Of a stretch of DNA of 64,000 nucleotides, positions 2,161-38,453 are shown in pieces. Position 1 is the stretch's first letter, and the number at the start of each line of letters is the position of its first letter. The translations under genes and the position numbers were made by a program. The stretch comes from Callorhinchus milii. Lineage: Eukaryota. The notes beneath the pieces are model-generated. The model ran no database searches, had not been told where the DNA came from, and saw nothing but the letters and a program-made list of their open reading frames with translations. The stretch covers positions 18,848,001 to 18,912,000 of the forward strand of contig NW_024704749.1 of NCBI RefSeq assembly GCF_018977255.1, read 5' to 3'.

Positions 2161-2745
2161 CAGGGGGGAAGAGATGAGCGGTGGACCGGAAGTGTGCGGG
2201 AGGGAGGCCGGGGGACGGGTTAGGGGGGACGGACCGCTGCCTGGAGACGGTGGAGGCGTCGGTCGGGAGCCGAGAGGAGGTGACGCCTGGAGACCCGACA
2301 CCGACACCGACAGCCAGAGCCCGGGGGCCAGAGCTCAGGGGCCCGGGGGCCAGAGCCAGAGCCCGGGGGCCAGAGCTCAGGGGCCCGGGGGCCAGAGCCA
2401 GAGCCCGGGGGCCAGAGCTCAGGGGCCCGGGGGCCAGAGCCAGAGCCCGGGGGCCAGAGCTCAGGGGCCCGGGGGCCAGAGCTCAGGGGCCCGGGGGCCA
2501 GAGCCAGAGCCCGGGGGCCAGAGCCAGAGCCCGGGGGCCAGAGCCAGAGCCCGGGGGCCAGAGCCAGAGCCCGGGGGCCAGAGCCAGAGCCCGGGGGCCA
2601 GAGCTCAGGGGCCCGGGGGCCAGAGCCAGAGCCCGGGGGCCAGAGCCAGAGCCCGGGGGCCAGAGCCAGAGCCCGGGGGCCAGAGCTCCATGGGGGAGAG
2701 TCAGGCTGGACACCGGCATAGACATGGCGGCCTCCAGGTACCCGG
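2161..2745 (+). promoter_or_regulatory. Probable WDR31 CpG-island promoter / first exon
   Basis: GC/CpG-rich. ETS/GABP motif CCGGAAGTG at 2186-2194, YY1-type gacATGGCGGC at 2721-2731, candidate donor CAG|gtaccc after 2737 (alternative donor near 2817). Confidence 0.6.
2313..2688. repeat. GC-rich VNTR of 20-nt (GCCCGGGGGCCAGAGCCAGA) and 22-nt (GCCCGGGGGCCAGAGCTCAGGG) units
   Basis: Near-perfect tandem units. The array explains the long low-complexity ORFs at 2174-3284. Confidence 0.95.
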
Positions 2746-2819
2746 GGACTGAGGGGAGAGAGAGAGAGAGAGAGAGAGAGGCTGAGCTGCTCACTGCACT
2801 AACACGATTACTGTTGGTA

Positions 2820-2820
2820 A

Positions 2821-2854
<34 letters not shown>

Positions 2855-3192
2855 AATCTGTCTGTCTGTCAATCTGTCTGTCTGTCTGTCAATCTGTCTG
2901 TCTATCAATCTGTCTGTCTGTCAATCTGTCTGTCCGTCAATCTGTCTGTCTGTCTGTCTGTCTGTCAATCTGTCTGTCTGTCTGTCTGTCAATCTGTCTA
3001 TCAATCTGTCTGTCTGTCTGTCAATCTGTCTGTCTATCAATCTGTCTGTCTGTCAATCTGTCTGTCTGTCAATCTGTCTGTCCGTCAATCTGTCTGTCAT
3101 TCTGTCTATCAATCTGTCTGTGTCTGTTAATCTGTCTGTCTATCAATCTGTCTGTCATTCTGTCTATCAATCTGTCTGTCTGTCTGTCTGTC
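2820..3192. repeat. (TCTG)n/TCAA compound microsatellite, preceded by (GA)n at 2754-2779
   Basis: Directly visible. Confidence 0.95.
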
Positions 3193-3230
3193 AGTACAAA
3201 ATAAAGATCTTCATGGAAAGCCCCTGGGAG

Positions 3231-3626: not shown

Positions 3627-4214
3627 ACAACCCTCTGATGACCCGCTGGCCTGATGATAATCCATGGCTTCGTTCAGGCTGACATGAAAAGGCCGGCACT
3701 TTTTGGACCATAAAATGTAAGTACAGTACGTTTTTTTAAGGTCAGTTTGTTTTGTGGTGTTGGAGTTGTACGATGTGAAAGTTCCACGACAGACAGACTG
3801 ATTTACCAGCCTGAGTATCTTTAATCCACTCTAATTATTGTGGAATGTATGTCACTGAGCAACCCCATTCCTTCCTTCATGTCTGTGTGTGCCAGCTCTG
3901 GAGCGATCGCTCTAATCCATTTATCTTTTCCCTCCCCCCAAACCCTTTTGTGTCTTAATTTTTTTCCCCCTAATGTTTATCCGATTCTTTTCAAATCAAA
4001 AATTTGACTTGGTATCGTACTTGATATTAATTTTCCCACATTGCCGTTACCATTTATGAAATAAAATGTCGGAAATGCGCAGCCGACGAATAACCAGCAA
4101 GGCAAGCTAATGTGTAGGTGTGACTCTTCATGAGAAAGTGGAATGACTGACTCCAATCCTGTCTCTTTTAGACACTACAGTTATGGCGTGTCTCCACTGA
4201 GCACACTTACTGCT

Positions 4215-11412
<7,198 letters not shown>

Positions 11413-14400
11413 GCACGTTTCTCGAGCCACACATGGGGAAACAGCATCAGAGAGCGTCTGGGGAACCGATTATCTGATTAGCCGAACACAGGGAGGTGGC
11501 GCTGGGTGGAATGAAAGACCAGTGCTCTCTGTGTTTATGTTAATAACTATTATTATTATATTAAGCACTTTTCTGTTAATAGGTGATGTCCCTGTGTGTA
11601 CTGTGTATAATCTGGACTCTCCAAAATAAGCTATGAACAATATGGGTTAGATAAGTTTTAAAGGAGTGAAATTAACCTGAACTTGTTTAAAGTATTTCCA
11701 AGGTACTAGTTGCTGTCGTTCTGGTCCTCGATGGAATTTGGGAGTCTGATGCTAACTGCTCTGCTCTTGGCAAGTGAGAGCTGACCCTTCATGTCTGATC
11801 CTGTGTGGTTTACACGAGTGCTGTTGCCAGTTCTGTGCAGGGAATATCTGCTTGGCACGACCTCTCGACACGAAAGGCGCCGTTTGAATGTAATTTTTTT
11901 TAGTTGTCTACACCAACTTGGCTCGGTTGGCAGGATTCTCACCTGTGGGTCAGAAGATTGCTGGTTTAGAGTCCAGGCTGACGCTCACAGTGCAGTGCTG
12001 GGCTAGCGAGCACTGCATTGTCAGAGGTGCCATCATTCGAGTGAGATGTTAAACCGTGGCCCCTTCTGGCTATTCGGGTGGACATTAGTGATCCCAAGGC
12101 ACAAATCAAAAAAAGGAAGGAGGTTTTCTTGGTGACTCAGATCCCTCAGATAAATTGGTCGTTCACTTTATGGTTGTCTGTGGGACAATGCTGTGTGCAA
12201 ATTGGCTGCCACTTAAAGGTATTTATTGTAAAGGCCTTGAACGTTTCAATGTTTTAGGTACTAAATCAAATGAAAGGACTATTACAATTATGATTAGGTA
12301 TAATTGTGCCCTTTTTTTATTCTTAGTTATAAAGAAGAAAACCCACATTATCACTTAACTGTGTGTAGTAATCCGAGGTCCCATCTGCCTGTCCAGGTGG
12401 ATGTTAAAGATCCCACGACACTATTTGAAAAGAGAAGGGAGTTTCTCTCTTGCAGTATCCTGGGAAACAAATTCCCCCAAATAAAATTGGTCACTCACTC
12501 CTTGGCTGTTCTCTGGAGACGTTGCTGTGGCTAAAATTGGCTGCCGCGTTCGGCCACAAAACACACAGTAACTTTACAATATATCCTGTTAAGCGCTTTC
12601 AAACGACCTCCTGACGTGAAAAGCGTTACATCAAATGCAAGGATCAGTATTTTTATTTAACAGTGCTTATTATTTAATGCTTATCATTAGCATAAGCCAT
12701 CAGGATGTACTTTTGGTTGAAGCCAAGTCCATACAGCAGTTAAAACACAACCAGATACAATTTAGTGGGTAAAATTAACATAGCATTATGAGGGGAAAAG
12801 GGGCAAATGGAATTGAAGTGGATGGCTCCAGTAGCAGCACAAACTTCCTGCGTTGTAAAGTTTCTATGATGATGATGTTGAGAGGCTGCAAATATGTACC
12901 CTAGGTGGCACCAGGGTAACACGTATTCTACCACTGGATGGCACTGGGGTTGCCAAAGTTTTGTCAAGTGCAGGAACTGCATTGAGTGTGTGGGGTTATG
13001 ACTTGAGTTCACTCCGTGTGTTTGCTTTGCTGACATTCCTTGAATACCTTGACCTATAGACTGCTGGCAAGTTAATGGAAACTCCCCCCCCCTCTCTCTC
13101 TCTATGGTCCGACCAGTTCTGTAAAGTTATCAACTCACTGAAATCTTAAATGCAAATGCTAAAAATAGATAATAAAGGTGCGGTTGTCTACATTAATCTC
13201 TATCCGTTTTTAAAAAAAAGTGTCGCGTTTTATTCTGTTTGCTCTTACGGTCAGCCATAATTCTCTTTTCTGACTTTTTTTAAAAACGTTAAAACTCTTT
13301 ACTTGTCACGTTGGAGCTGAGGGTGCTTGTAACAAGATGTTTTCAGCAAAAGTTGAAGGCAAAATATGAATAGCCCAATCTCGTAGTTGAAAGAGTCAGA
13401 CAGATTGCTTGATGCACTGGGAACCTATCACCATACTCAAGAGTATCCAAACCAGACTGATAATTCTGAGCCTGAAAGCGTGGAATATGCATGGAAATTC
13501 CCGGGAATGGAATGGAATGCTTATTGTCTCCAAGTGACGCATCCTCTCTTCTGGAGAGGAGTTGGCACAAGTTGCCAAGAGTCAGTGTGTGTTGGGGTAG
13601 TTGCTGCGATTTAATCAACCAGCTTGAGACCAAAGGCTCTGCCGCATGAGGTAAATGGGAAACAATGGTCCTTTATTCCAAGGCAAACATTTGGTTTTAG
13701 GAACAATCCATTTGGACACGAGAGCTCCACATCCAGTCCTCATTTCATTGCCCCTTCAGAATCCTGCATCAGTCAGCCGGGTGTCTGACACGTGTGGAAA
13801 CCCAGCCACATGCTAAGAGTATCCGAAACAAACAGAGTTCCACCTACGTATGGAAATTCCCAGAATGCGCACTCTCTCCTTGGAGGGACTCATCCTGCTA
13901 AACCAATTACGAAATGTATTAGGGCGCAGGTTGGCAAGAGCCAAAACACGAGGATCCCAGAGTGTGTGCTGCGGTACTGCTGGAGTCTAACCAGCTAAAA
14001 CTGCATATCTTGCAATTGATATTGCTGCCTGGCAAGCTTTCCCGCTGCCAGTCCAACTAGTGCCTCTCTACCTGTTAGGACTTTGGCTTGCAGGGTTAAC
14101 AGGAGCTGAGTGTGAAGAGTCCCTGCCCGCAGTGACTGTTCTGCCTTCCAAGTCCTGGCTGTGCTGTCATCAGCAGTGCTCTGGAATACTGCAGACCTGC
14201 CTGGCTCATGAACTGGATTACCGAGACCGCCACAGAGGGTTGGCTCGATTCTCACATTCCGTTGCCCAACAAGTCACCTTGAAGCCAGTCGGCAAATTCT
14301 TAAATTCAGTGTTAATTTTGAAGCCGCCTTCGCGAACGTTCCCATAAAAACTAGAGAAAATCAACTTGGAAGTCAAGGCTGAATTCAACAGCTTGGCAAG

Positions 14401-14991
14401 TTCTGCACACTTTTAAATGCTACATATATAGAGTCAATCTGGACCCAGGTGAAATCTCTTATCAGTTCCCCCTCCACCGTCTTAACTTTAAGAATAAAAG
14501 TGGCTTCCAAATTAGGATTTAAGAATTTTTCAACCTCCACCTTCTCTGCTCTAAGGAGAATCTCCAATGCTGTACATTTTTTGTGGTTTTGTTGTTTGAC
14601 CTCATATGGTTATACTTATAAAAATCACGTTCAATCAAACGTAAAATGAGTACAACTTAGCTTCGAGTACAAACATCGGATCATTCCTTGTTACCATCAA
14701 ATTCCCCCTAATAAAATTGGTTGCTCAGTTCATGTTTTTGGGGCGTGAATAAGCTTTGAATAAAATAAGCAATCTTTAAATAAGTATATGACATCCGCGC
14801 ACTCACCACCGTCAAAATAAATCAATTCTCACAGCAAGGGCAGAAAGAAACTAATTTACAAAACCCACCAAATCGATTGGCCAGTTGACACATGTTGATG
14901 AATTATTCCTGTAACAGTGTGCGTGTTTGGAAAGAGTTTCCCTGTTGTGTCTCTCAGGAAAGCGAGCTGTGAAATGCTGGATAAGGTGCTG

Positions 14992-15540
14992 TCATAAGAC
15001 TCGGATGAGGTAGGCAGGGATGAAGATGATACTGAACACGAATAGCAAGCTGGCCAGCATGAGGAATCCTACACCGAGGTAGTTAGTGAACCAGATCCTG
15101 TATCTGGACAGGCGAGGTGGGTGATGGACGCCCACCATGTGGGGAGGGTATGGGTGCTCAGGGTGGGGCAGAAGCTGCAGTGTCACCACCATGCCGAGGT
15201 CTTCGCTCCCATTTTTCTTCAGCCAACACAGCCGAGAGCCCTCCAGCCAGACTGTCTGCAGATCCTGCAGGCCTGGAGGGAAGGAGGACATCATCTCCAG
15301 GTTGGCACTGAGTTTGGGAATCCCTCCTGCTGGGATGGAGATGGCAGCCCTACAGAGCGGACAAGAGAAAGTGTCTGTCTGCTTGGTGAAGATGCACATC
15401 CTGGAGAGGCACTCCATGCAAAAGGTGTGACCGCAGGACAAGAGCAGAGGTGTCTTGGGGCCATTGTCGTAAGAGACATAACAGACCGGACACTCAGAAA
15501 TAGTCCTGTGGGGCTGCACCTCCTCTCCCTGATCTCCCAT
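14992..15540 (-). CDS. RING-HC finger + C-terminal transmembrane E3 ligase, RNF183 family (RNF223-like), 182 aa
   Basis: Intact single-exon ORF with CPVC..CGHTFCMEC..CPLC (C3HC4). VWLEGSRLC resembles RNF223 as recalled. Hydrophobic tail YLGVGFLMLASLLFVFSIIFIPAYLI. Candidate acceptor tcttggctcag ~40 nt upstream. Confidence 0.88.
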   Translation of the reverse strand: MGDQGEEVQPHRTISECPVCYVSYDNGPKTPLLLSCGHTFCMECLSRMCIFTKQTDTFSCPLCRAAISIPAGGIPKLSANLEMMSSFPPGLQDLQTVWLEGSRLCWLKKNGSEDLGMVVTLQLLPHPEHPYPPHMVGVHHPPRLSRYRIWFTNYLGVGFLMLASLLFVFSIIFIPAYLIRVL

Positions 15541-18500
15541 GCCTTGGAGTTAAGCAGGAATGGTCTCCATGCTGTGACCCTGAGCCAAGACAACTCACAT
15601 AGACCAGATTCAGTGAAGTTAGTAGAAGATAAAAGGGAGTTCCTTTGTAGCCAGGGCAGTGGTGTCCTTGTCTTGTTCCAATGGATGTTTTTCAGAGATG
15701 AGGACCTCTCTCCTCTGGCTGTGATGTCTCACTCCTCTTGAACTCACTTATGTCGCCATATGAATATCACTCCTTTCTTTCTTCTCTCTGTGATGTATCT
15801 CTCTGGAACAAATATCTTCACCTTTTCTCTTCCCTTCCTCCGATTATCTCTTCTTTGCATTTATTTATCCCTCTTCGCTGATTTTCTGTTCCCTCGATTC
15901 TCTTTCTCTCTCTCTGCAATCTCTCCAGTTCTCTCTGTACTTGTCTGTAACTCCACTCCCTTCTCAGTGAAGCTCTCCTCTCTCTCTCTGTGAGTCTCTC
16001 TCTCTCTGTGAATCTCTCTCTCTCTCTCTGAGACTCTCCCTCTTTCTCTCTGTGAGTCTCTCCTCTCTCTCTCTGAGTCTCTCTCTCTCTCTGTGTTTGC
16101 TAATCGTTTCTAAGGTTGCCTCAGACTCCCACTCCACCTAGTTACCACTTTCATTCAATGTTCACTGTCACTCACCTTGTTTGACTCCAGACTCCAACTC
16201 CTACAGTTCCAAACTCGGATCTTCAGGTCATTTGATTGAATTGGTTACGATCAGGGTAGGTTATCAACTGTTGACGATCGGAGAAAATTCCCAGGGCAAC
16301 AATCCTGTTGGAGGTCATCTTAGGAGGAGCGAGAACGGGTGATATTGCCTTGATTGACTGTATTCAGATACAACTCCCTTTTGCCCCCCCACCCCAACCA
16401 ACTCCCTGTTAAAGTTTTCTACTGGTTACCTGGTTCCTAATGGGAGCAAAACAAAATATACAACAAAATTCAATTTGCAGTATATTCTGTGAAGCCCTTT
16501 GAGACGTCTCAACGATGTAGTAAGATGCTAAATCAAACACAAGGATTATTATAAAGTGCATATTACTGTTGGTGGTGTGTTGGTTGCCCTTTAAGGCTTC
16601 ACTGCTCCATTCCTGGCCATAATGAAAGTTGTTTTCACTCATGTAGCATAGCAACACAGGGACTTTGTGACCACTGCACCAGGCTGGAGAGCAAGAACCT
16701 CTCACAAGATAAATGGGTCTTGGGTCACTGCGGTTTGCTCCAACGTCAGCCTCGGTCATGGTTAATATGCTTATTGGCACCATCCAGACCTCAAGTATAT
16801 TCAGATCAATCATCCTGCTTACCTCAGGCACGTCACTTATGACCTGCCTTTGCTCTGAGAACGTGAAGTTGGAACCCGGTTATTAAACGATTGGCAGATC
16901 ATTTTCCGGAGGCAATAATCCCTTAAAAAAAATTGGGACACTCAATCCACGACTGCTGTGCGCAATTGGCTCACAAAAGACAGTCAATTCACTTCTCAGT
17001 ATGTTCTGTGAGAAATCTCAACAGCGAGATAAGGCGCTGTATCAAATGCAAGGAATACCAATATTATTATTATTAGCTTTCTCAGCCCCACAAGTCATAA
17101 GGTTGTCTTCAGTCACTGGAGCCCCCCACACACATGCACACGCACACAAACAGCCAGCGACTGCATTATTTCAGGCCCACAAGTTTATTATTAACTTGGT
17201 GTAAAGCTCTTTGTTGTGGCAGCCTGGACTGTGAGCTCAATTACCCCCTGAACTGGGGCTTTGCCCTCAGCCTTCTGACCCAAAAGTGGGAGTGTGACCG
17301 GCTTGAGCCGAAGCACTTTTTTTTGCTGCGCGGGAGAAAAGATGAAAGTTAGACACCAGGAACTCTGTATCGAATATCAATGCAAATCACCAGCAAAGAA
17401 GAAAAAAGATTATTTGAATTACAATGGAAACTCTGATCTGCATTAAGAGAATGTTTCACAGAACGCTATCTGCACAGATCATCTTTTACACAAGGCTGAA
17501 ATTTCCTGCTACGTCACTGGGGACAGAGGCACCGGCTCGTTGGTGTTGGGCTCCTTATGACACAGATCGGGATCTGACTACTGGGGGGTTCTCACAATGG
17601 GATTCAATGAGATTCTATGATAAGGAACCAAAGCCACACAAATTGGGAACTCGGCAGTACATCCCACTGAGCAGCACATTGCCTGATCGAGCCACTTGGT
17701 AAAGAAATACTTCTTGGTATCCCTTTTAATATTGCCCTTTGCAACTCTAAACCTGTTGCTCTGCTATCTTGGCATGTTTAAAAATAGAAGTTTTACATCT
17801 CTCAACAGGAGAGATGAGGAACAGACAGCAATGCTCCAGGCTCAGTGGATCAGTACAATGGCAAATTTCTCCCTAAAGGCACAGAACAAACACAATAACA
17901 ATAAAAACAGCAGTCGCCGGAAACACTGACTAAAAGTCATTGGCCTGAAACGTTAACTCGCTTTCCTCTCTCCGTGGATGCTGCCTGACCTCCTGAGGGT
18001 TCCCAGCGACTTCTGTTTTTATTTCAGATTTCCAGCATCTGCCCTATTTTGCCTTTTGTTGAATAACAATGATGTTCACTGTATTTGAAACATCACGGAT
18101 CACATCAAAACATTTCACAGAGAATTGTGTAGTGACTGAGCGCTCTGGGACACTACTCTACTTGAGGGGAGCTAGATAAATCCAAGCTGCTGTTGTTGTA
18201 ACTGTCTATTTCAAGGCAGACAATTTTGAGCATAATAATGACCCTCAGATCAGCCACAAATTTTATCTGGAAGCTTGTTGGCCTGGACACCGAGAGAAAA
18301 AAGACCTTTTTGTTTGGAATTACTTTGCGGGATCTTTAACATCCATGCGAACAGGCAGACGAGACCTCCGTTTAAAAGGACGACACCTCTAATATTGTAG
18401 AACTCCCCCCAGCACTGCACTGATAGGGCTGAAAAGTGCTGCCTTGTGCAATCATTGCCTATAGCTCATCCATTTGGGTGAGGAGGTGGGTGTCAGTCTC

Positions 18501-19854
18501 AGCACTGCAGTGAGTGAGTTCACTCCTCTCTGTCCTTCCCAAAGTGGAGTGCGCCCCATTTGGATCTCCCCTCATTTAACTAAAGTAGCTCAGGTTTCAG
18601 CTCAGTAGTACATTAGGGAAATATATGGAAATAAAGAGTCTTTTTTCATTATACATTTGACAGCCACATCTGAGAGAGAGAGAGAGCAGATGCGTGGACT
18701 GTTACCTGCGAGTAGAGTTTGCAGCTCAACGCAGTGCAGTCAAAAAACCTCAGGCCTGGCAAAGACAGCCCGTTCCAGCAGATCCAACGTTAGCTATCTC
18801 CGAAGCAGAAGAATTCCCCAAGGAGATCAGTGGCGGAAAAGAGAACATTGCCTTGGATTGAGAGTAAGAGTTTCAGAGCTTTCAATGGCAGTGTTGGAAT
18901 ATAAGTCTATCCAACTGTGTGAGCTTTGCTTCTGTCAGTCTTAAGCTGTGCTGTGCTCTCCATCTTGCCTGTCTCCATCACTTAGAGCTCACGTGGTGAA
19001 AAGTTTCAACCTTTTCAGCCTCTGACGCTCTCACTCTCTCTGACAGACCATTTGCAACAAATTCCGTTTCTCAAATGGGCTGTTGTTACCAACGCAGTTG
19101 ACTTTGCGTTGACTCCCTGGTTCAGTTGGTAGCACTCTCACCACTGCATCAGAAGGTTGTTCAAGCCTCGGGGTCAGGGACTCTGAGTTGACAGTCAAGG
19201 CTGTGAGAGCCTATGCTGTACCGTTGGGTTATCAGACATGTGTCCTACAGATGAGATGTTAAACCGAGATCCCATCTGCCTGCTGAGGTGAACGTTAAAG
19301 ATCCCTCGGGGCTACTGATGTCCAGGCCAACAATCTTCAAGATAGAAGTATCCATTCACACTACGGCTATTTGTGGGTCAATGCTGTGTTGCAGTCACAT
19401 TTGCCTACAGATCTACAGTCACAGCAATTATTGTGAAACGCTTTGAGAGGTTTTGGATGTCATAAGGCAGCGGATCAAATGCAGGGATTACTATTAGCAT
19501 TCCTTGGGTGTTACCCTTCAGATAAGATGTTAAACCTGTTAAGGCGGACGTTAAAGATCCCATGGCACTATTCGAAAAGAGAAGGGAATTTCTCCTGGTG
19601 TCCTGCGCCACACTTTCAGAAGAGGAACCAGAGAATGTTCCTTTCCCCGGAGGGTAATCGATGACTGGAACAGTTTACCAAGAAGTGTGTGAGTGCGAGT
19701 GTGTGTGGGGACGGGAGTTGGGGGTTCGGGGGTTGAGTCCTGGACTCATTTCAAAAAGAGATAGATGCTCTGATGGGAAGACAGTAGGGTGGGTATTGTG
19801 GAAGGATGACATCATGTGTTTTGACAAAGTGCCACATGAAAGATTAACTGAAAG

Positions 19855-20405
19855 ACAACAACAACAACAACAAGATTTCATTTACAGAGCGCCTTTCACG
19901 TCGGCAGGACGTCCCACGGTGCTGGACAGTTGGGTCGGGACCCGAGCAGGGGAGAAACAGTCAGGGTGAGGGGAGGGAAGGGAGGGAGCGAGGAGTGGGT
20001 AGAGAGTCGAGAGGGGAGCTGAAGGCACGGTCAAAGAGAAAGGTCTTGAGACCGGCCTTGAAGGAGGAAAGGGAGGAAGCGAAGGCGAAGGCACTGGGGG
20101 TTAGAGTTCCAGAGCCTCGGGGCTGAGAGGCTGAAGGCCCGGCCACCGATGGTAGGGCGGTTGGGGCGGGGGATGTGAAGCAGACCGGAGCCAGAGGAAC
20201 GGAGGGTACGGGCAGGTAAGTAGGGGGATAGTAGGTCGGAGAAGTAGGAGGAAGTGAGGCCGTGAATGGCCTTGTAGGTGAGGATGAGGATCTTGAATTC
20301 GATCCTCTGGGGGAAGGGGAGCCAGTGGAGGCGAGCGAGGGTGGGAGTGATGTGGTCGCGAAGCCTGGTGCGAAGACCAGATTGCCAGGAAGGGTGGTTG
20401 AGGCC
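19855..20405 (-). mobile_element. L2-clade LINE 3' fragment (RT C-terminus + 3' UTR + (TTG)n tail)
   Basis: Translation DHITPTLARLHWLP..RIEFKILILTYKAIHGL..YFSDLLSPY.PARTLRS..GGRAFS..APRLWNS. Shorter L2 3' ends at ~410-570, 4318-4530, 35030-35210, 37075-37230, 48845-49130, 50065-50345, 53825-54150, 62860-63070, 63467-63590. Confidence 0.92.
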
Positions 20406-20957
20406 AGGAAACTGCACTCATTGAAAAAAGTGCTTGATGCTTTGATGGAAGGGAAGGAGATGAGATCAGAAAGGACTAAAGGCTTTCTTTGTCTGAACTA
20501 GTTTTGTTATCTTTCTTGCAAGATGATTGTCAGACATCCGTTTAGTTCTGTCAGTATATCCTGGTTGTTCCTAGAATAACTATGCAAGTATACCAGGCTT
20601 GTTTTCATGGCTATGTGTACGACTTCTATTCTGCAGCCCTATGCGATTTGATTATCATGTAACTGAATATTCTTTGCATTTAACACAGCACCTTTCATGT
20701 CGGAGTGATGTCTCAATGCACCTCACAGGATTTACAGCCAAATTTGCACACAGCCATCTTCCACAAACAGCCACAAAGAGAATGATTCCATGACACTATT
20801 ATTAATAGTATTATTGGTAATAATAATAACTATGAATATTATTAATAATAATGATGATTATGTAGCGTCAGCCAAGACAATGCCCTCCTGTGACTCTGTC
20901 TTGTGTCTCTGTAGGGTCCTCTGGTTGCCGTTGACATCGTTGACGTCGTGTCAGATC

Positions 20958-21521
20958 ATGTCTGAAGACAAGTTCCATGACCTGGAGTGCACGATCTGCT
21001 TCAGTGATTACAACAATGGCTTCCGAGTGCCCAAGGTGCTGGAGTGCGGACACGTCTTCTGCCTGGAATGCCTGGCCCGGATGAACATGAAATCTCACGT
21101 GGCCGAGGCCATCCTATGCCCGATGTGTCGTGGCATTTCCCAGGTGCCCTTGGCCGGCTTGCCCAAGCTTAACAACGACCCCGCAATCCTGTCCGCCTTG
21201 CCCAACGACATGAAGAGGATATACAGCGTCCGCTTCAACCGCACCAAAGGCCGCCTCCTCATGCACAAGCCCAGATCCCAGATAAAGAAAAAAGTGTTTG
21301 TCAACTCGGTCAGTCAGACCCTAGACGTGAGCAACCCATCACAGCCCGTCATCTACAGTCTGCGCAAACGCATCTGCTGGCCACTGTCCAAGGCCAAATA
21401 CTGCCTCGCCACCTTCGTGATTATAGTTGTCACCCTTGCCCTCTTCTTCGTCTCCATCTGGGCTTTTAATCTTCCCCAGAACAACTCCAGCTCATGGAAA
21501 ACTACAAACAGCAACAAATAA
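20958..21521 (+). CDS. RING-HC finger + transmembrane E3 ligase, RNF183 family (RNF225-like), 187 aa
   Basis: Likely start MSEDKFHDLEC at 20958, after acceptor tctctgtag|20915. CTIC..PKVLECGHVFCLECLARM..CPMC. SVRFNRTKGRLL resembles RNF225 as recalled. TM helix YCLATFVIIVVTLALFFVSIWAF. Confidence 0.88.
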   Translation: MSEDKFHDLECTICFSDYNNGFRVPKVLECGHVFCLECLARMNMKSHVAEAILCPMCRGISQVPLAGLPKLNNDPAILSALPNDMKRIYSVRFNRTKGRLLMHKPRSQIKKKVFVNSVSQTLDVSNPSQPVIYSLRKRICWPLSKAKYCLATFVIIVVTLALFFVSIWAFNLPQNNSSSWKTTNSNK

Positions 21522-24500
21522 TTCCACTTTGCAGCATCATTGCCGTTGCCATAACCTGGGACCCCCGAGGGAGGGGCAAGGCCACTTTACATATTTTTAT
21601 AGTACTTCAGCACCTTGCGACGTCCTCCTGACGTGCCCTGCTCCACCGTACTGTTAGATATTCCTGGGCATGTCACCTGCCCAGGTAAACCTTGCTCAGC
21701 TTGGCACAGATATGCATCTCTGTTTGAATAGTGCCATAGAGTCTTTGATGTTCATTTGAAGAGACGAAGAAAGGAGCCTCGGTTTAAGGTCTCATCCAAA
21801 GAACGTCACCTCTGATAATGCATTGCACTCGACTGGTAGTCTGGACCGGGAGCTCAGAATTTCTGATGAGGGGATTTATTATATTATATATTATATTAAA
21901 TAACATATTAAAAAAAAATTGAAAAAAAAAGCACATTTACTTAGGTAAAACCTCAGCAGAACTGTGAAGGATAAGCGTGGGTGGGGTGGGGGGGGGGGTT
22001 ACTATAAAAGTATTTTGACAATTGTGTGAATTGTTGACAACTCATCTTAATCCTCTGTGGATGAGTCAGTCACCTGAAGTTGCGCACAGTTTGGCGAGGA
22101 GGCTATTCCATGCTTATCAGAGCCATCTACAGTGAGAGAGATTGCATTATGAGTAGAAATTCAGGGTCGTTCTGCTGACATTTTTTAAGTCAACGAAGGA
22201 TAGTTCTGCCTTCATCAACAACAGCAAAAAACAAATTACTCTTAATAATAATCTTGCATTTGATACAGCGCCTTATCACGTCTTTGAGACGTCTCAAAGC
22301 ACTTCACAGAATATATTGTAAAGTGAATTGACTGTATATTTTGTGGGTGATCATATAGCGCCTTTCATGTCAGGAGGATGTCCCAAGGCACCGGACAGTC
22401 AAGGATTTGGCCCCGAGCTGGCGTTTGGGTGAGAAAAAGAACACTGACACTTTTGGGTACAAATTCTGTTCAGAGATATCGGTCGTGCCTTTGGTGCCTG
22501 TTAAAGTCAGACTCCGCTACTGTCAAGTGCCCTGGGATGCTACACCACGTGAAGAGGGCTATATAAATGCAACTTGTTACTGTTGTTGTTGTTGTAAAGT
22601 CTCATTATATGGCTGACATTGTCTGAGGCTACACCAGAATGCTGAACGTAAGGTCTACGTTTGTAACTTAAAGTCTCTACCTGGCTCTCTTCAAAGCCAA
22701 TTGAGAGGACAGTGCGTTAGGAAAGAGAGAAATTCTGACACCTCAAGTCTATTATGCCCCACAGGTAAACCATGTGTTGACGTCTGTGAACAGATGAAAT
22801 TACAGATGCTCTTCAATCCATTGCATTGCAAGTCTAACCACATTATTAAATGTTTGCACGAGGTTTTCACATGCCACATAACTGAACCCAACCAACATAA
22901 CTGAGCTCTGCCTCTCCCCAGAAAGTCCAGCCGTGTCAAATTACTATTGTTAATAAACTATGTGTGTGTTTCCTTTCAGCTATGCAACTTTTCCTAATCA
23001 AAAGGGTTTATTTTGGGGGTTGGGGGTGGGGGGGTGGGAGCAGGGAGAGTGGGATTGTCAGTGAAGTGTCTGACACACAAGGAAACACATCACCGCCCTC
23101 GAGCCTCCAAACCATAATAGTAACAGCGTCAGTGGTGGCTTCCAATTGTCTGGAAGGGAATGAGCACTTGCTACCTAAATGACAACGTGACTCATCTAAT
23201 CGCGGAAGCAAGAGCCAAGGCTTGGGGCTGGGGGGGTGGTTCCCAGAATGTGCAGAATGACTTTCATGTAGTTATATGGGAGATGGGCCAGGTGGAGGAG
23301 GTGTTTGAAGACTCAGTGAATGAGATAGACTTTTACAGGTTTGTTTAAAGTAACTCTAGACGTTAACCAGCTAAAAACTGCACAGCCCGTCACTGTGAAC
23401 AAGATCCCTCTGCTTGTCCAGCTGGGATCTACTCACATTTTGAGAAACAAGCTGTTCCCGTCGTTACTGATGTTTGCTCCAATAAAACAGTTCCTCTCTG
23501 TATTGAATGGTCTCAGGCTCATTCCCGTCTCTGTCCACACTGAGTATGTTTCTCAACAGCACCAAGTTACACTTATACAAAGCCTCTCATGGAGTTATAT
23601 GGGAGATGGGGCATTTTGAAGACGCAGTGAATGAGATAGATTTTTACAAGGTTGTTTAAAGTAATCATAATAATCCTTGCATTTGCTCTATCACGTCTCA
23701 CAGGATTTTACTATGAAGTGGAGTGACTGTATTTGTAGGCCAACACAGCAGCACAATCGCACACAGCAGTGTCCCGCAAACAGCCACGGAGTGAGCCAGT
23801 AATTTTACTTGGGGGATTAATGGCCAGGACACCGGGAGAGAGAACCTCCCTTCTCCTTTCAAATCCTGTCATGGGATCTTCAAGTTTGGTTTAAAGTCAC
23901 ATCTGAAGGACGGCACCTCTGGCCATATAGCACCTTGACCCCAGCACTGCATTGGAGCATCAGCCCAGGATGTACAGATTGTGCCCTGATCAATATTTAT
24001 TCCCTGATTCTAGTTACTTTACCAGCTGTTCCTGCTGTTTCCCCAATGTGTGTGATATAAGGAACACTCCTCTGTTCGCTCACACACCTGTCTCAGTGCT
24101 GCTCTTTGCAATCCCCCCTTTCTCCCTCACCGTCTCCAAAAACAACTCTGCCATCTATTGCCGCTGTGTTTCCCAACTAACCAGGTACCTATGTGTCTGT
24201 GCCGGGGAGGTGAAGGGTCACCAGATCCTGCCCTCTCCTGCTCCCATCTCTGTAGATTACGGGTGCAACGGAGTGGCACTGAGACACACCTGAGCTGGGA
24301 GAGAGAAAGAGAGACAAGCGTGCGGGTTACAATTCATCTGATTAAACAGGACATCAGAACCTGTACAACCTGTTTCTCCGGCTCAGGTGTACCACGTGAT
24401 ACAGCTTAGGAGCCGTGAGGAGAGCTTGTATTTCCTTGAGAAGAAAGGGGGAAACTTTCAATATCAGTTCCTTGTGTTGAGAGCAATGATTCGCTCCCGT

Positions 24501-25418
24501 GGACACCGCTGGATTGAGTCGGGCAAATTAATTGTGGAGACGAGGATTGGGATTAATTCCTCAGTGGCCTAGTCACTCGACGTGAGGAAGCCGGGTGAGC
24601 GTGGGCAGTCTGCACAGAGAGACCCTAACTGCTTCAGGCAGTCATCAATCTAAACTTGTGCGCCTGAAACAACGCAGTGCCTGTCCGTTTGTGTGTGCGC
24701 TTGTGCGTGTGTCGGGGGCTCCAGGGACTGGAGACAAGCTTATGACTTGTGGGACTGAGAAAGATGATATAATAATAATCCTGCATTTGATATAGCGCCT
24801 TCTCACATCCTTGAGACGTCTCAAAGTGCTTCACAGAATAGATTGTAAAGTGGAGTGACTGTGTATTTTGGGGGTGAAACATGGCAGGTGAGTTGTCTCA
24901 TTCACAAACAGTCGTGGATCGCGTCACCCAATTATTTTTTGGAGAGATTATTACGCTGGGAAAGCGATCTGCCAATCGAATAACAACCGGGTTCCTACTT
25001 ACTGCGAGGTAAACAGAGCCGTGTGGAGTAACGAAACTTGCCTAAGGTTTCACCCCGCCCGGGAATCGAACCTGGGTCCTCTCGCTGGTGAGGTGAGAAC
25101 ACTAATCACTACACTACGGGACTCCAAAATCCCAAGCAACGACAGAGAGTGGGATAGCTCTCTTCCAGAGGCACGAAGGGCAGGACTCTGCGGCACAGAA
25201 ACCGGTGCGAAAGCGTGAGGTGCGATCAGCCCGACCGTCTTACTCTGGTTCCCCGAGAGCTTCGCACAGAGAAGGCTGCAGATCGTCAAGCGCTCGTGGT
25301 CGCACAGGGGTCCGGGTTCTATCTGCCGTGACATTGAGGGGCTCCGCTTGGTGTTCACCCCCCACCATCTCCCCACTGCGCCCACAACCGGCCACTTACT
25401 TCACTGCGTCTCGCTGCG

Positions 25419-25979
25419 ATGCTGCAGGGAAATGACCCCGGGGAACCCGAGTGTGTGATTTGCTGGAATCGCTATGACAATGCCTTCCGGATGCCCAAGG
25501 TGCTGGAATGCAAACACACCTTCTGCCTGGAGTGTCTGGCCCGCATGAGCCTGGCCTTCGTGTCGGAGTCGGCCCCGGAGGTGTCCTGCCCTCTGTGCCG
25601 GCAGTTGACCGTGCTGGGGCCGGGCCGGCAGATCACAGGGCTCCCGGCCAATGCCGACATCCTGCGCCACTTGCAGCTCGAGCCCTTCAACGTGCTGCTG
25701 GACCGCGGGCGACTGGTCTACAAGGGCTCGAGGAAAGCTCACTTCCTGCTGCACCGGCCCACGGTCTACACCCTCAGCCTCGATGTGGAGAGGCAGCGGG
25801 ACCTCTCCCTGTCCCCGGGGGGAGGGGACGGGGCTCCCGGCCGGAGATTCCTGCGGAAATGCTGCCAGAGCGTTCATCTCCGGGCCTTGACGTACGTGCT
25901 GATCAGCGTGTTCGGGATCTCCATCTTCCTGATTGTCTCCTTGTTCTGGACCAAGCAGATCTTGTGGGGGATGGGCTGA
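25419..25979 (+). CDS. RNF183: E3 ubiquitin ligase RNF183 orthologue, 186 aa
   Basis: CVICWNRYDNAFRMPKVLEC.H.FCLECLA, CPLCRQ.TVL, LQLEP, PTVYTLSL and the C-terminal FWTKQILWGMG match human RNF183 (..FWTKQFLWGVG). Same position and orientation between WDR31 and PRPF4. Confidence 0.92.
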   Translation: MLQGNDPGEPECVICWNRYDNAFRMPKVLECKHTFCLECLARMSLAFVSESAPEVSCPLCRQLTVLGPGRQITGLPANADILRHLQLEPFNVLLDRGRLVYKGSRKAHFLLHRPTVYTLSLDVERQRDLSLSPGGGDGAPGRRFLRKCCQSVHLRALTYVLISVFGISIFLIVSLFWTKQILWGMG

Positions 25980-27802
25980 GCTGAGCCAGCGAGCGAGCGA
26001 GCTTGCGAGGTGAGGCTGACGAAAGTCATGGAGCAAAAGACCAAACACTCACTCTCGGGCAGAGTGAGGCACTGGATGATTCCGCTCTGCCGGCTACTTT
26101 GGAAGCAACTCCGCGGCCCGAGCCGCTCTCTCTTGTGTTGTATTTGAATTTGTTTTTTCATACAAAAGGCCGTATTATTTAGAACCTCACACGTACGGAC
26201 CAGGGGTGAGGAGCGGCTGCTCGGAGTGACAGCCACCTCCCTCACGCTTTGCTCCTGCCCCTGAGCTGTGCCCTTTGCTGTTAGCTGAACTTGTTGGGAA
26301 GAACCAGGAGACAAATCCCCTTTCATAAAAATATTAATAATCTTTACGTTCGATACGGCGCCTTTGGACGTCCTCCTGAAGCAAAAGGCGCTGTATCAAA
26401 TGTATTGTAAATTGTACTGTATACCGTAAATTGTTGTGACTGTGTATTTTCTTTGTACGGTGAGCGGGGGTGGGGTGGGGAGCAAACTCCTCAGTGGCTG
26501 CTTCCTGCCAAAAATACTAGACATAGGGACATTGGGAATAGGTCGTAAATTAGGAAACGTGCTCTGGGGAGCTGTGACCATAGATGATTGGATCAGAGGA
26601 GCCCAGGGAACAAGTTTACTAGAGGATAATAATAGTTAGTGCCAGACAATGACAAGCTATGTGGTTTCCAGCAGTTACCCAAACACAACACTCTGCAGTC
26701 TCCATGCCTCGACTCTTGCAAAATTGCACCAAATACTCTGCGGAATTAGGTAAGTGGGGTGGGATTCTCTGGGGAGAGTGCTCACTCATTCCATTTCGGA
26801 CAGAAGGAAATGTTAAAGAATATTCCAAATCCAAATACATGGATATTCTCAAGCGTGGTGATGGGTTTCTGTACGTGTCCGAGTCTGGCTGAGTTCCGCT
26901 GGAAATCTGGTGGATTGTTGGCCAGGACACCAGGAGAAACTCCCTTTGCTTATGTAAACCAAAATTGAGTGAGTGAACGGAAAGCTGTACGCATACACAC
27001 AGCACATCACATACCACAGCCTCCCATAACATAATCTTGAATTTGGTATAGCACCTATCACATCAGGACATCGCAAAGCACTTCACTGGATGTATTGTAA
27101 AGTGGAGTGACTGTGTGTTTGTAGGTGAATGTAACAGCCGATTTGCAGTTATACAAGCTTGTGATGTAGAAGTTGATGTTTGTTTCCCTGTGACTGTAAA
27201 GCACTAAGCAAATCTTAATTAAAAAACAATATGTGAAAGGAACCAAGCAGATGACATGTAATGAGTACAAGAGTCTTAAGTATTGATTTGCAGCAGTAAT
27301 AGAAATGACTGGAGCTTCCAACTATCAAGGCTGAAGTTTTGAACAGAATTGATCTCAAACCACACTCCGCTACATTTTTCTTTGCGCACTTAACATGGGA
27401 AAATTTGGAATTGATCACCAGGAATCAAAATTCTGAGCTGTCAGGGTTAGGCAGTCAGATGTTTTAACAAACCTTTACTCCAGCATTATCACGTCTTCAA
27501 GACGTCTATAAGCGCTTCGCAGAATATACTGTAAAGTGAATTGATTGTGTATTTTGTGGGAGAAACAAGGCAGCCAATTGTGATGAATGATTCAGGATTG
27601 CGATGAAGCAGTAAAGACGAACAGTAGAGAACACGCAGTAAATGAAAACTGCTGGTCGGACTCGTAAAAAATAAAATATAAAATAAAATTGCATTTGGAG
27701 GGCATTGCAAAGCGCTTCGCAAGATATACTGTAAAGTGCAATGACTGTGTGTTTTGTAAGTGAATAGTTTAGAATGACGAAGTGTTTTTTTTTACAAAAG
27801 TA

Positions 27803-27808: not shown

Positions 27809-28615
27809 ATACAAAGGTGGTGGGGATAATAAAAGGCTGATCACCCATATTCACAAACGCGATAGTTGCGTGTTTAACTAGCCGAGTGAACCTGAGTCAC
27901 TGACCCGCTGGGGTTCAGCGTGGTGCGAGCCCCCAGGACGCTCCTGGGTGGTTTACATTTCAATACTCGAACGGTCACCTAGAGCCCTGCAGATTGATGC
28001 AAGTTTGTGTTCCTGGCGGTGCTCAGGCTCAGCTCTGCTTCAACAATCAAACCAGCAGCAAAGGCAACACTCGCGAGCCTGACTGCAGGAGAGGTGAGCT
28101 GTGATCTGCCCCATTGCTTAAGTTCTGCTTGTATGAACCGGTTGGTGGGAAAACCGTAAATAAATCCAGTGAAAAGGATGGGACCTTTGATCCTCAAAAG
28201 GTCTTACTGTACGCTTCGGAGATGTGCGGTTAAGAGCACGCAAACCCCAGTGCGGAATTTGTTTAGTTTCCATGGCGGGGTTTCAGCAAGCACCACAGCT
28301 GAAGGAAAGGCTGAATTAGGTTTAGGTTTTATGTAAATATAAGTTTCTGTTCAACCAACGTGGCTTTAGGGGAAGGTCAGGAAACCAAACAAGTTTCAAA
28401 CTCCCGTCTTTTATCACTGAGAGAAAGTTAGAGAGAGAGAGTGCGGTACCTCGGCAACCACTGTATACAAGAATCTGACTGCACACAGGAGTCAGGCAAC
28501 AGAGCTGAGGGAACCATGGCCAGGTGCCATCGAGTGCGTTGTGTTTTGGCTGCAACACCTGCCCCACTCCCGCCCCGCTATGGCAGCTTGTCACCAGATC
28601 CTGCTGATGTCCTGT

Positions 28616-38453
<9,838 letters not shown>

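Follow-up and report, generated by a model that had tools for sequence, protein, structure and literature searches.

The stretch studied here, 64,000 nucleotides of the chimaera Callorhinchus milii (assembly GCF_018977255.1, contig NW_024704749.1, forward-strand positions 18,848,001 to 18,912,000; the whole stretch is called the window below), carries three neighboring genes, A, B and C, each encoding a RING-HC domain and a C-terminal tail anchor. We believe, at a probability of about three in four, that this cluster consists of RNF183 and two further intact lineages as old as the jawed vertebrates (gnathostomes), which were likely lost in mammals, and that the products are predicted tail-anchored ligases for the turnover of membrane proteins. 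A and B are two unnamed members of a known ligase family. Judged from trees and gene neighborhoods, RNF223 and RNF225 are their paralogs, A and B are not these two genes at an older site, and C is the ortholog of RNF183.

The three genes are uninterrupted open reading frames (ORFs) lying between a WD40 gene and PRPF4 (Table 1). A and B point away from each other, 5.4 kb separating their start codons, and B and C stand in tandem. All three passed the curated Pfam cut-offs for the RING domain (E-values of 1e-9), and the eight C3HC4 zinc ligands, the linchpin Arg and the hydrophobic residue of loop 1 were present in each. A single C-terminal hydrophobic segment was found in every protein (Kyte-Doolittle 19-mer peaks of 2.45–2.84), in line with the one or two C-terminal transmembrane (TM) helices of RNF183-type ligases; the models of A and B also end in a long helix. 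Because the RING matches are this strong and shark and ray orthologs are 54–63% identical, the frames are not chance ORFs. Global identities were 23% for A and B, 32% for A and C, and 35% for B and C. Within the trio, VWLEG..LC was found in A alone and SVRF..G.L in B alone. The original prediction had described three intact frames of 182–187 aa with an N-terminal C3HC4 RING and one C-terminal TM helix, the first two head-to-head, a RING signature common to all, and a VWLEG-type and an SVRF-type motif in the first and second gene, respectively. Pfam, the zinc ligands and hydropathy confirmed this layout, the divergent orientation and the confinement of each motif to its own gene, and the common signature proved real, with a 4-residue spacer.

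Table 1. Positions of the three RING genes and of neighboring features in the window.
Feature	Position	Strand	Remarks
Gene A	14992–15540	−	182 aa; RING-HC, beta-strand module with VWLEG motif, C-terminal TM helix
Gene B	20958–21521	+	187 aa; RING-HC, SVRF module, TM helix; likely acceptor 20913–20914
Gene C	25419–25979	+	186 aa; RNF183 ortholog, judged from trees and position
Likely 5' untranslated exon of A	16104–16318	−	RNA-type contig ends exactly at minus-strand AG acceptor 16319–20
Left neighbor, WD40 gene	4172–11412	+	long 3' untranslated region seems to reach about 14.8 kb, toward A
Right neighbor, PRPF4	27887–37617	−	PRP4 domain 37424–37498, WD40 exons, spliced joint 28808–29456; 5' end further right

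The start of B is likely the one given in Table 1, because B orthologs of sharks and rays begin with MSE[D/E]K (3/3 aligned) and a pyrimidine tract with an AG lies just before it. An in-frame ATG at 20790 would give a protein of 243 aa; this longer form was rejected, as the upstream ATG is not conserved. A 72-base stretch of the RING is common to B (21013–21084) and C (25477–25548) at 85% identity, which may mean strong constraint or else an old, short tract of gene conversion. The closest match of C, at 96%, is an RNF183 entry of C. milii. In UniRef, the C. milii entry named "Ring finger protein 183" (P0018) is a chimera of the first residues of B and the remainder of C. Its joint falls on 14 identical bases common to B (21030–21043) and C, and the implied splice donor scores 0.0, so the entry is likely a gene-model artefact that masks B.

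The orthology of the trio was evaluated with a quick tree of 84 rows and a careful tree of 58, from which 26 of the 84 had been dropped (long branches and near duplicates). In the careful tree, A and B each formed a clade (support 100/98 and 100/99, respectively), and C joined RNF183 of monkey, tegu, frog, gar and shark at 100/100. RNF223 formed another clade (92/99), B and RNF225 shared a branch (98/96), and A, RNF223 and RNF183 shared a second branch (95/93) with no resolved order within it. One GC-rich sequence (P0175) fitted no clade. C is 43% identical to monkey RNF183 and lies just downstream of PRPF4 in an ALAD-SPRY-WD40 block. A and B have the layout of mammalian RNF183, a tail-anchored RING-HC E3 ligase, but differ from it as separate lineages, 32–35% identical to C.

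The true RNF223 of the same genome was found at C24:6.449 Mb, the cluster lying on contig C8. It pairs with mammalian RNF223 (95/83) and is flanked by agrin NtA exons (6.24–6.25 Mb) and by DUF4501/C1orf159 (6.47 Mb); the human order is presumably AGRN-RNF223-C1orf159. Since this place is taken by another gene, A is not RNF223; it also stands outside the RNF223 clade. RNF223 is nevertheless the best non-self match of A in the genome (42% over residues 16–114), and the two have the VWLEG-type module in common. For B, orthology of the shark gene to RNF225 of bony vertebrates was rejected by the approximately unbiased (AU) test (p = 8e-5). In Mustelus, an RNF225-like gene lies on a 140.6-Mb contig and RNF183 on a 109.0-Mb contig; the goby Periophthalmus has both B and a separate RNF225. 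B is therefore not RNF225, although they have the SVRF module and an LDVG-type strand in common; moreover, DHX16 and RPS5, to which RNF225 is linked in sturgeon and in mammals, respectively, lie on contig C167.

The original prediction called the three genes RNF223-like, RNF225-like and RNF183 in a block of 9q32 type, and regarded the first two as ancestral copies of RNF223 and RNF225 that were later scattered. The name of the third is borne out by its clade and by its PRPF4, ALAD and WD40 neighbors. The other two names hold as likeness, with the RNF223/RNF183 branch nearest to A and RNF225 nearest to B, and fail as identity. The scattering of ancestral copies has to be given up, because the true RNF223 and RNF225 exist separately. 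That the genes are strongly diverged and no recent amplification agrees with their identities (23–35%) and with their separate old clades.

Clade profiles were used to assign the best 150 representatives of a profile search, which fell to A (13), B (35), RNF183 (8), RNF223 (32) and RNF225 (29), with 14 other relatives and 19 unassigned. In the bamboo shark Chiloscyllium punctatum, GCC34074, GCC34075 and GCC34076 follow one another as the orthologs of A, B and C, and a single contig carries the whole trio in C. plagiosum. Judged by proxies (same-sized contigs or near accession numbers), A and C share a contig in Heptranchias, Rhincodon and Hemitrygon, B and C do so in Hemiscyllium, Pristis, Carcharodon and Narcine, and the locus tags of A and B lie five apart in the newt Pleurodeles. 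A is also present in frog, bichir, an elopomorph teleost, snapping turtle and crocodile, and B in several teleosts, a side-necked turtle and crocodile. Given the consecutive genes of bamboo shark, the close positions of A and B in newt and the presence of both in crocodile, the trio is, as far as comparisons of this kind go, an old gnathostome cluster, and the array is ancient rather than recent, as had been proposed. No mammal was found among the representatives with names (6/13 for A and 6/35 for B). In the crocodile B ortholog (P0126), Trp replaces the linchpin Arg and the model shows no clear TM segment, which may indicate decay. A Cys-rich sturgeon protein of 137 aa (P0056–P0066) clusters with an RNF183-like protein two accession numbers away; it shows no RING and is probably a clustering artefact that arose via a fused model.

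Four sequencing runs presumed to be RNA were assembled as contigs, which are unstranded and cannot rank expression; a spliced PRPF4 joint indicates that the runs contain mRNA. One contig of run X1 (14170–15972) spans all of A. It is no proof that A is transcribed, because it continues the 3' untranslated region of the left neighbor at the same depth and is unstranded. The contig end at 16319–20 suggests a spliced A transcript, if strand and link to A are as we infer, and a strong minus-strand donor lies nearby at 16175. In run X2, contigs cover B (20948–21527), near background depth, and C (25057–26937). The conservation of the open frames between chimaera and elasmobranchs is better functional evidence than the RNA contigs.

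We propose that B and RNF225 are sisters left by a whole-genome duplication (ohnologs), a view that we hold to be moderately likely on evidence assembled across species. According to the excerpt of PMC1309616, DHX16 belongs to the class I region within the major histocompatibility complex (MHC), and 9q33-34, with PBX3, is an MHC-paralogous region. In sturgeon, the RNF225-like gene model has an exon of DHX16 at its end (E 3.6e-19 to DHX16). The excerpted text on a bacterial artificial chromosome (BAC) of Senegalese sole lists rnf183 beside dhx16, ppt2 and tnf-alpha (PMC6579814), and that of a preprint describes an RNF225-RPS5 block across mammals (bioRxiv 10.64898/2026.04.26.720791). In C. milii, about 11 kb separate DHX16 from RPS5 on C167 (61000–88000, L079–L081), and a class I tRNA-synthetase exon lies close by; a gene of the human MHC thus adjoins one of human 19q13. 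Of the four PBX and three BET loci, C8 carries one each, and its BET locus is about 320 kb away from the cluster. The tandem array would then predate the second vertebrate genome duplication; this chromosome would have kept three genes, and the MHC-linked copy only RNF225, the sister of B. RNF223 would have arisen from the A/RNF183 branch, by one route or another.

Alternatively, B and RNF225 may have been split by a small-scale event (retroposition or transposition) before the jawed vertebrates. Single-coding-exon genes move easily, and the RNF223 contig, which lacks the paralogon markers, shows such moves in this family. 9q32, moreover, is at the edge of the 9q33-34 region that PMC1309616 names. 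We regard this as the less likely course, though a serious one, since the DHX16 and RPS5 neighbors tie RNF225 to the MHC region and the window contig has its own PBX and BET paralogs, the BET locus being close to the cluster.

Several points weigh against the reading of an old cluster with a genome-duplication background. In the trees, the quick version showed B as an open grade, with RNF225 as a clade (98) and A with RNF223 at 85; the careful version made B a clade but RNF225 a grade, whose monophyly was not rejected (AU p = 0.436). A with RNF223 (43/0) and A with RNF183 (AU p = 0.49) were indistinguishable. Linkage outside bamboo shark comes from the proxies named above. The loss of A and B in mammals is likely, judged in part from a small named sample, and the RNA support for both genes is weak. 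As to origin, the DHX16-RNF225-RPS5 link was pieced together from different species, and neither RNF225 nor a remnant of it was found in the 110 kb around DHX16 or genome-wide in C. milii. The "rnf183" in the excerpted sole BAC account would, from its neighbors, be RNF225. No PBX or BET locus was found on C24, which leaves a simple origin of RNF223 by genome duplication without support.

As for the working mode, structure models of A and B had predicted local distance difference test (pLDDT) scores of 76.6 and 71.4, respectively. Both comprise the RING, short helices, three strands (A 97–122, B 91–123), a low-confidence linker and the long C-terminal helix. Fold searches with these models were filled by RING matches, the best being TRIM23 (Z 11.8, root-mean-square deviation 2.2, 75 residues), followed by TRIM2 and TRIM32. 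The RINGs of these proteins (5VZV, 8AMS and 5FEY) resemble A and B in the RING and its flanking helix, whereas A and B lack a B-box and a coiled coil and have a short beta module and a TM anchor in their place. The three-strand module bears the paralog-specific motifs, which are conserved inside each clade. Studies have shown, in the excerpts available, that mammalian RNF183 resides in the endoplasmic reticulum, Golgi and lysosome and is induced by NFAT5 (PMC7313026), and that, by means of lysine 63 (K63) chains, it delivers DR5, Na,K-ATPase beta1 and NKCC1 to lysosomes (PMC7313026, PMC13230821). The former excerpt also places RNF183 in an "RNF183 family" with RNF186, RNF182 and RNF152, and RNF223 and RNF225 do not appear in that text. 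By analogy, A and B would work like mammalian RNF183 but with different clients. The RING would face the cytosol and recruit ubiquitin-conjugating enzymes (E2s) of the UbcH5/Ubc13 type, the three-strand module would select substrates or adaptors and so give each paralog its own clients, and the tagged membrane proteins would undergo lysosomal or proteasomal turnover, K63 chains possibly routing them to the lysosome as with mammalian RNF183.

The original prediction also raised the possibility of a co-regulated module for urea-based osmoregulation. In a fuller form of this idea, NFAT5 would drive all three genes, and ion transporters would be removed in kidney and rectal gland. NKCC1 and Na,K-ATPase are core transporters of the shark rectal gland. 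The NFAT5 induction and the two transporter targets of mammalian RNF183, the divergent arrangement of A and B, and the linkage kept in sharks would suit such a module. The consensus for the tonicity enhancer (TonE) matched 16 times against 14.45 expected by chance, with no match between the start codons of A and B and one match 3.9 kb upstream of C, inside B. The start codons of A and B are also far apart, and the long contigs lying over the ORFs come from different runs (X1 for A; X2 for B and C). Animals without urea osmoregulation (freshwater fish, newt, turtles and crocodile) still have A or B, and each gene turns up without the other (B in many teleosts, A in frogs), though no search aimed at the missing partner was made. 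We consider the module improbable, and this part of the earlier proposal found no support.

It is slightly more improbable still that A and B came from RNF183 by local tandem duplication once RNF223 and RNF225 had already branched off. The adjacency of the genes and the RING stretch common to B and C would fit such duplication, and it may hold for A alone, as a sister grouping of A and RNF183 was not rejected. Against it, the AU test rejected A, B and C as a single clade (p = 0.003), in agreement with the earlier view that the trio are not lineage-specific RNF183 duplicates, and B is closer to RNF225 of Latimeria (40%) than to C (35%). A reading in which A equals RNF223 and B equals RNF225, still at the ancestral site that both genes left for other chromosomes in mammals, is very improbable: the two motifs, the database labels of the orthologs (RNF223-like, RNF225 or RNF225-like) and the RNF225 branch nearest to B speak for it, and it is refuted for A by the RNF223 in AGRN-C1orf159 order in the same genome and for B by its coexistence with RNF225 in a single species, the AU test also speaking against it.

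The surroundings of the cluster were also inspected. The left WD40 gene, which we take to be WDR31, seems to have a 3' untranslated region of about 3.4 kb (11413–14820, with AATAAA at 14493–14816), whose end lies near the 3' end of A or overlaps it in antisense. Pfam matches identified SPRY/PRY and ALAD exons farther left, the SPRY gene presumably being BSPRY. The human order at 9q32 is ALAD-HDHD3-BSPRY-WDR31-RNF183-PRPF4, with one RING gene there. Fragments right of PRPF4, presumably SLC31A1 and FKBP15, had no Pfam match. A GC-rich tandem repeat and a TCTG/ATCT microsatellite with long spurious frames occupy 2200–3200, near the 5' end of the left gene. On C167, a putative nurim-like frame beside RPS5 had no Pfam, PDB or named Atlas match, and C167:20900–31600 (L075, L076) holds two inverted, near-identical RRM/zinc-knuckle gene segments and repeated blocks by a gap of 25 N, which represent either local duplication or an assembly error.

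Other RING genes were found in the genome. About 720–750 kb left of the cluster on C8 lie two RING genes without a TM segment (L006 and L020), presumably RNF224-like and RNF208-like, and a third RING frame (C8:18146949). Two genes on C24 (L014, L059) and two on C14 and C2 (L008 and L019, respectively) are presumably RNF186-like and RNF182-like pairs; each pair was starred in the tree, and fewer copies are known in human. L005 (C5:11004158–11004646) is one frame with two tandem RINGs of RNF183 type and no clear TM segment, and L011 (C3), whose RING frame contains two stops, probably represents a pseudogene.

An account of the cluster, or of A or B, was not found in the main texts of open-licence papers. 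The original prediction had named annotation of the trio across non-mammalian vertebrates as an argument against novelty, and this holds in part, since the trio already exists as automatic annotation in several sharks, under misleading "-like" names. Database names are mixed: B orthologs are called RNF223, RNF225 or RNF183-like, and one true RNF225 is called RNF183. In excerpted form, one study describes a teleost "rnf183" near dmrt1, cfap157 and odf2b (PMC9871315), and another reports second-hand a croaker "rnf183" as a candidate for sex determination (PMC11507226). Going by these excerpts, both the gene near dmrt1 and the croaker candidate may be gene B. A wider picture, in which the array is a relic of a proto-MHC array from before the genome duplications, three specialized tail-anchored ligases act on ion transporters, among other membrane proteins, in the salt-handling epithelia of jawed fish, mammals kept one of the three, and much of teleost "rnf183", the croaker candidate included, is B or RNF225, is doubtful at present.

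The trio is not a new mechanism. What changes is the orthology of a small, little-studied ligase family with no fewer than five close members among jawed vertebrates (RNF183, RNF223, RNF225, A and B). Functional claims carried over from mammalian RNF183 to fish "rnf183" may therefore concern another gene. RNF225 is pointed to as an MHC-region gene that was displaced to 19q13 in mammals, and shark RNF183 is a testable candidate for the control of NKCC1 and Na,K-ATPase in the rectal gland.

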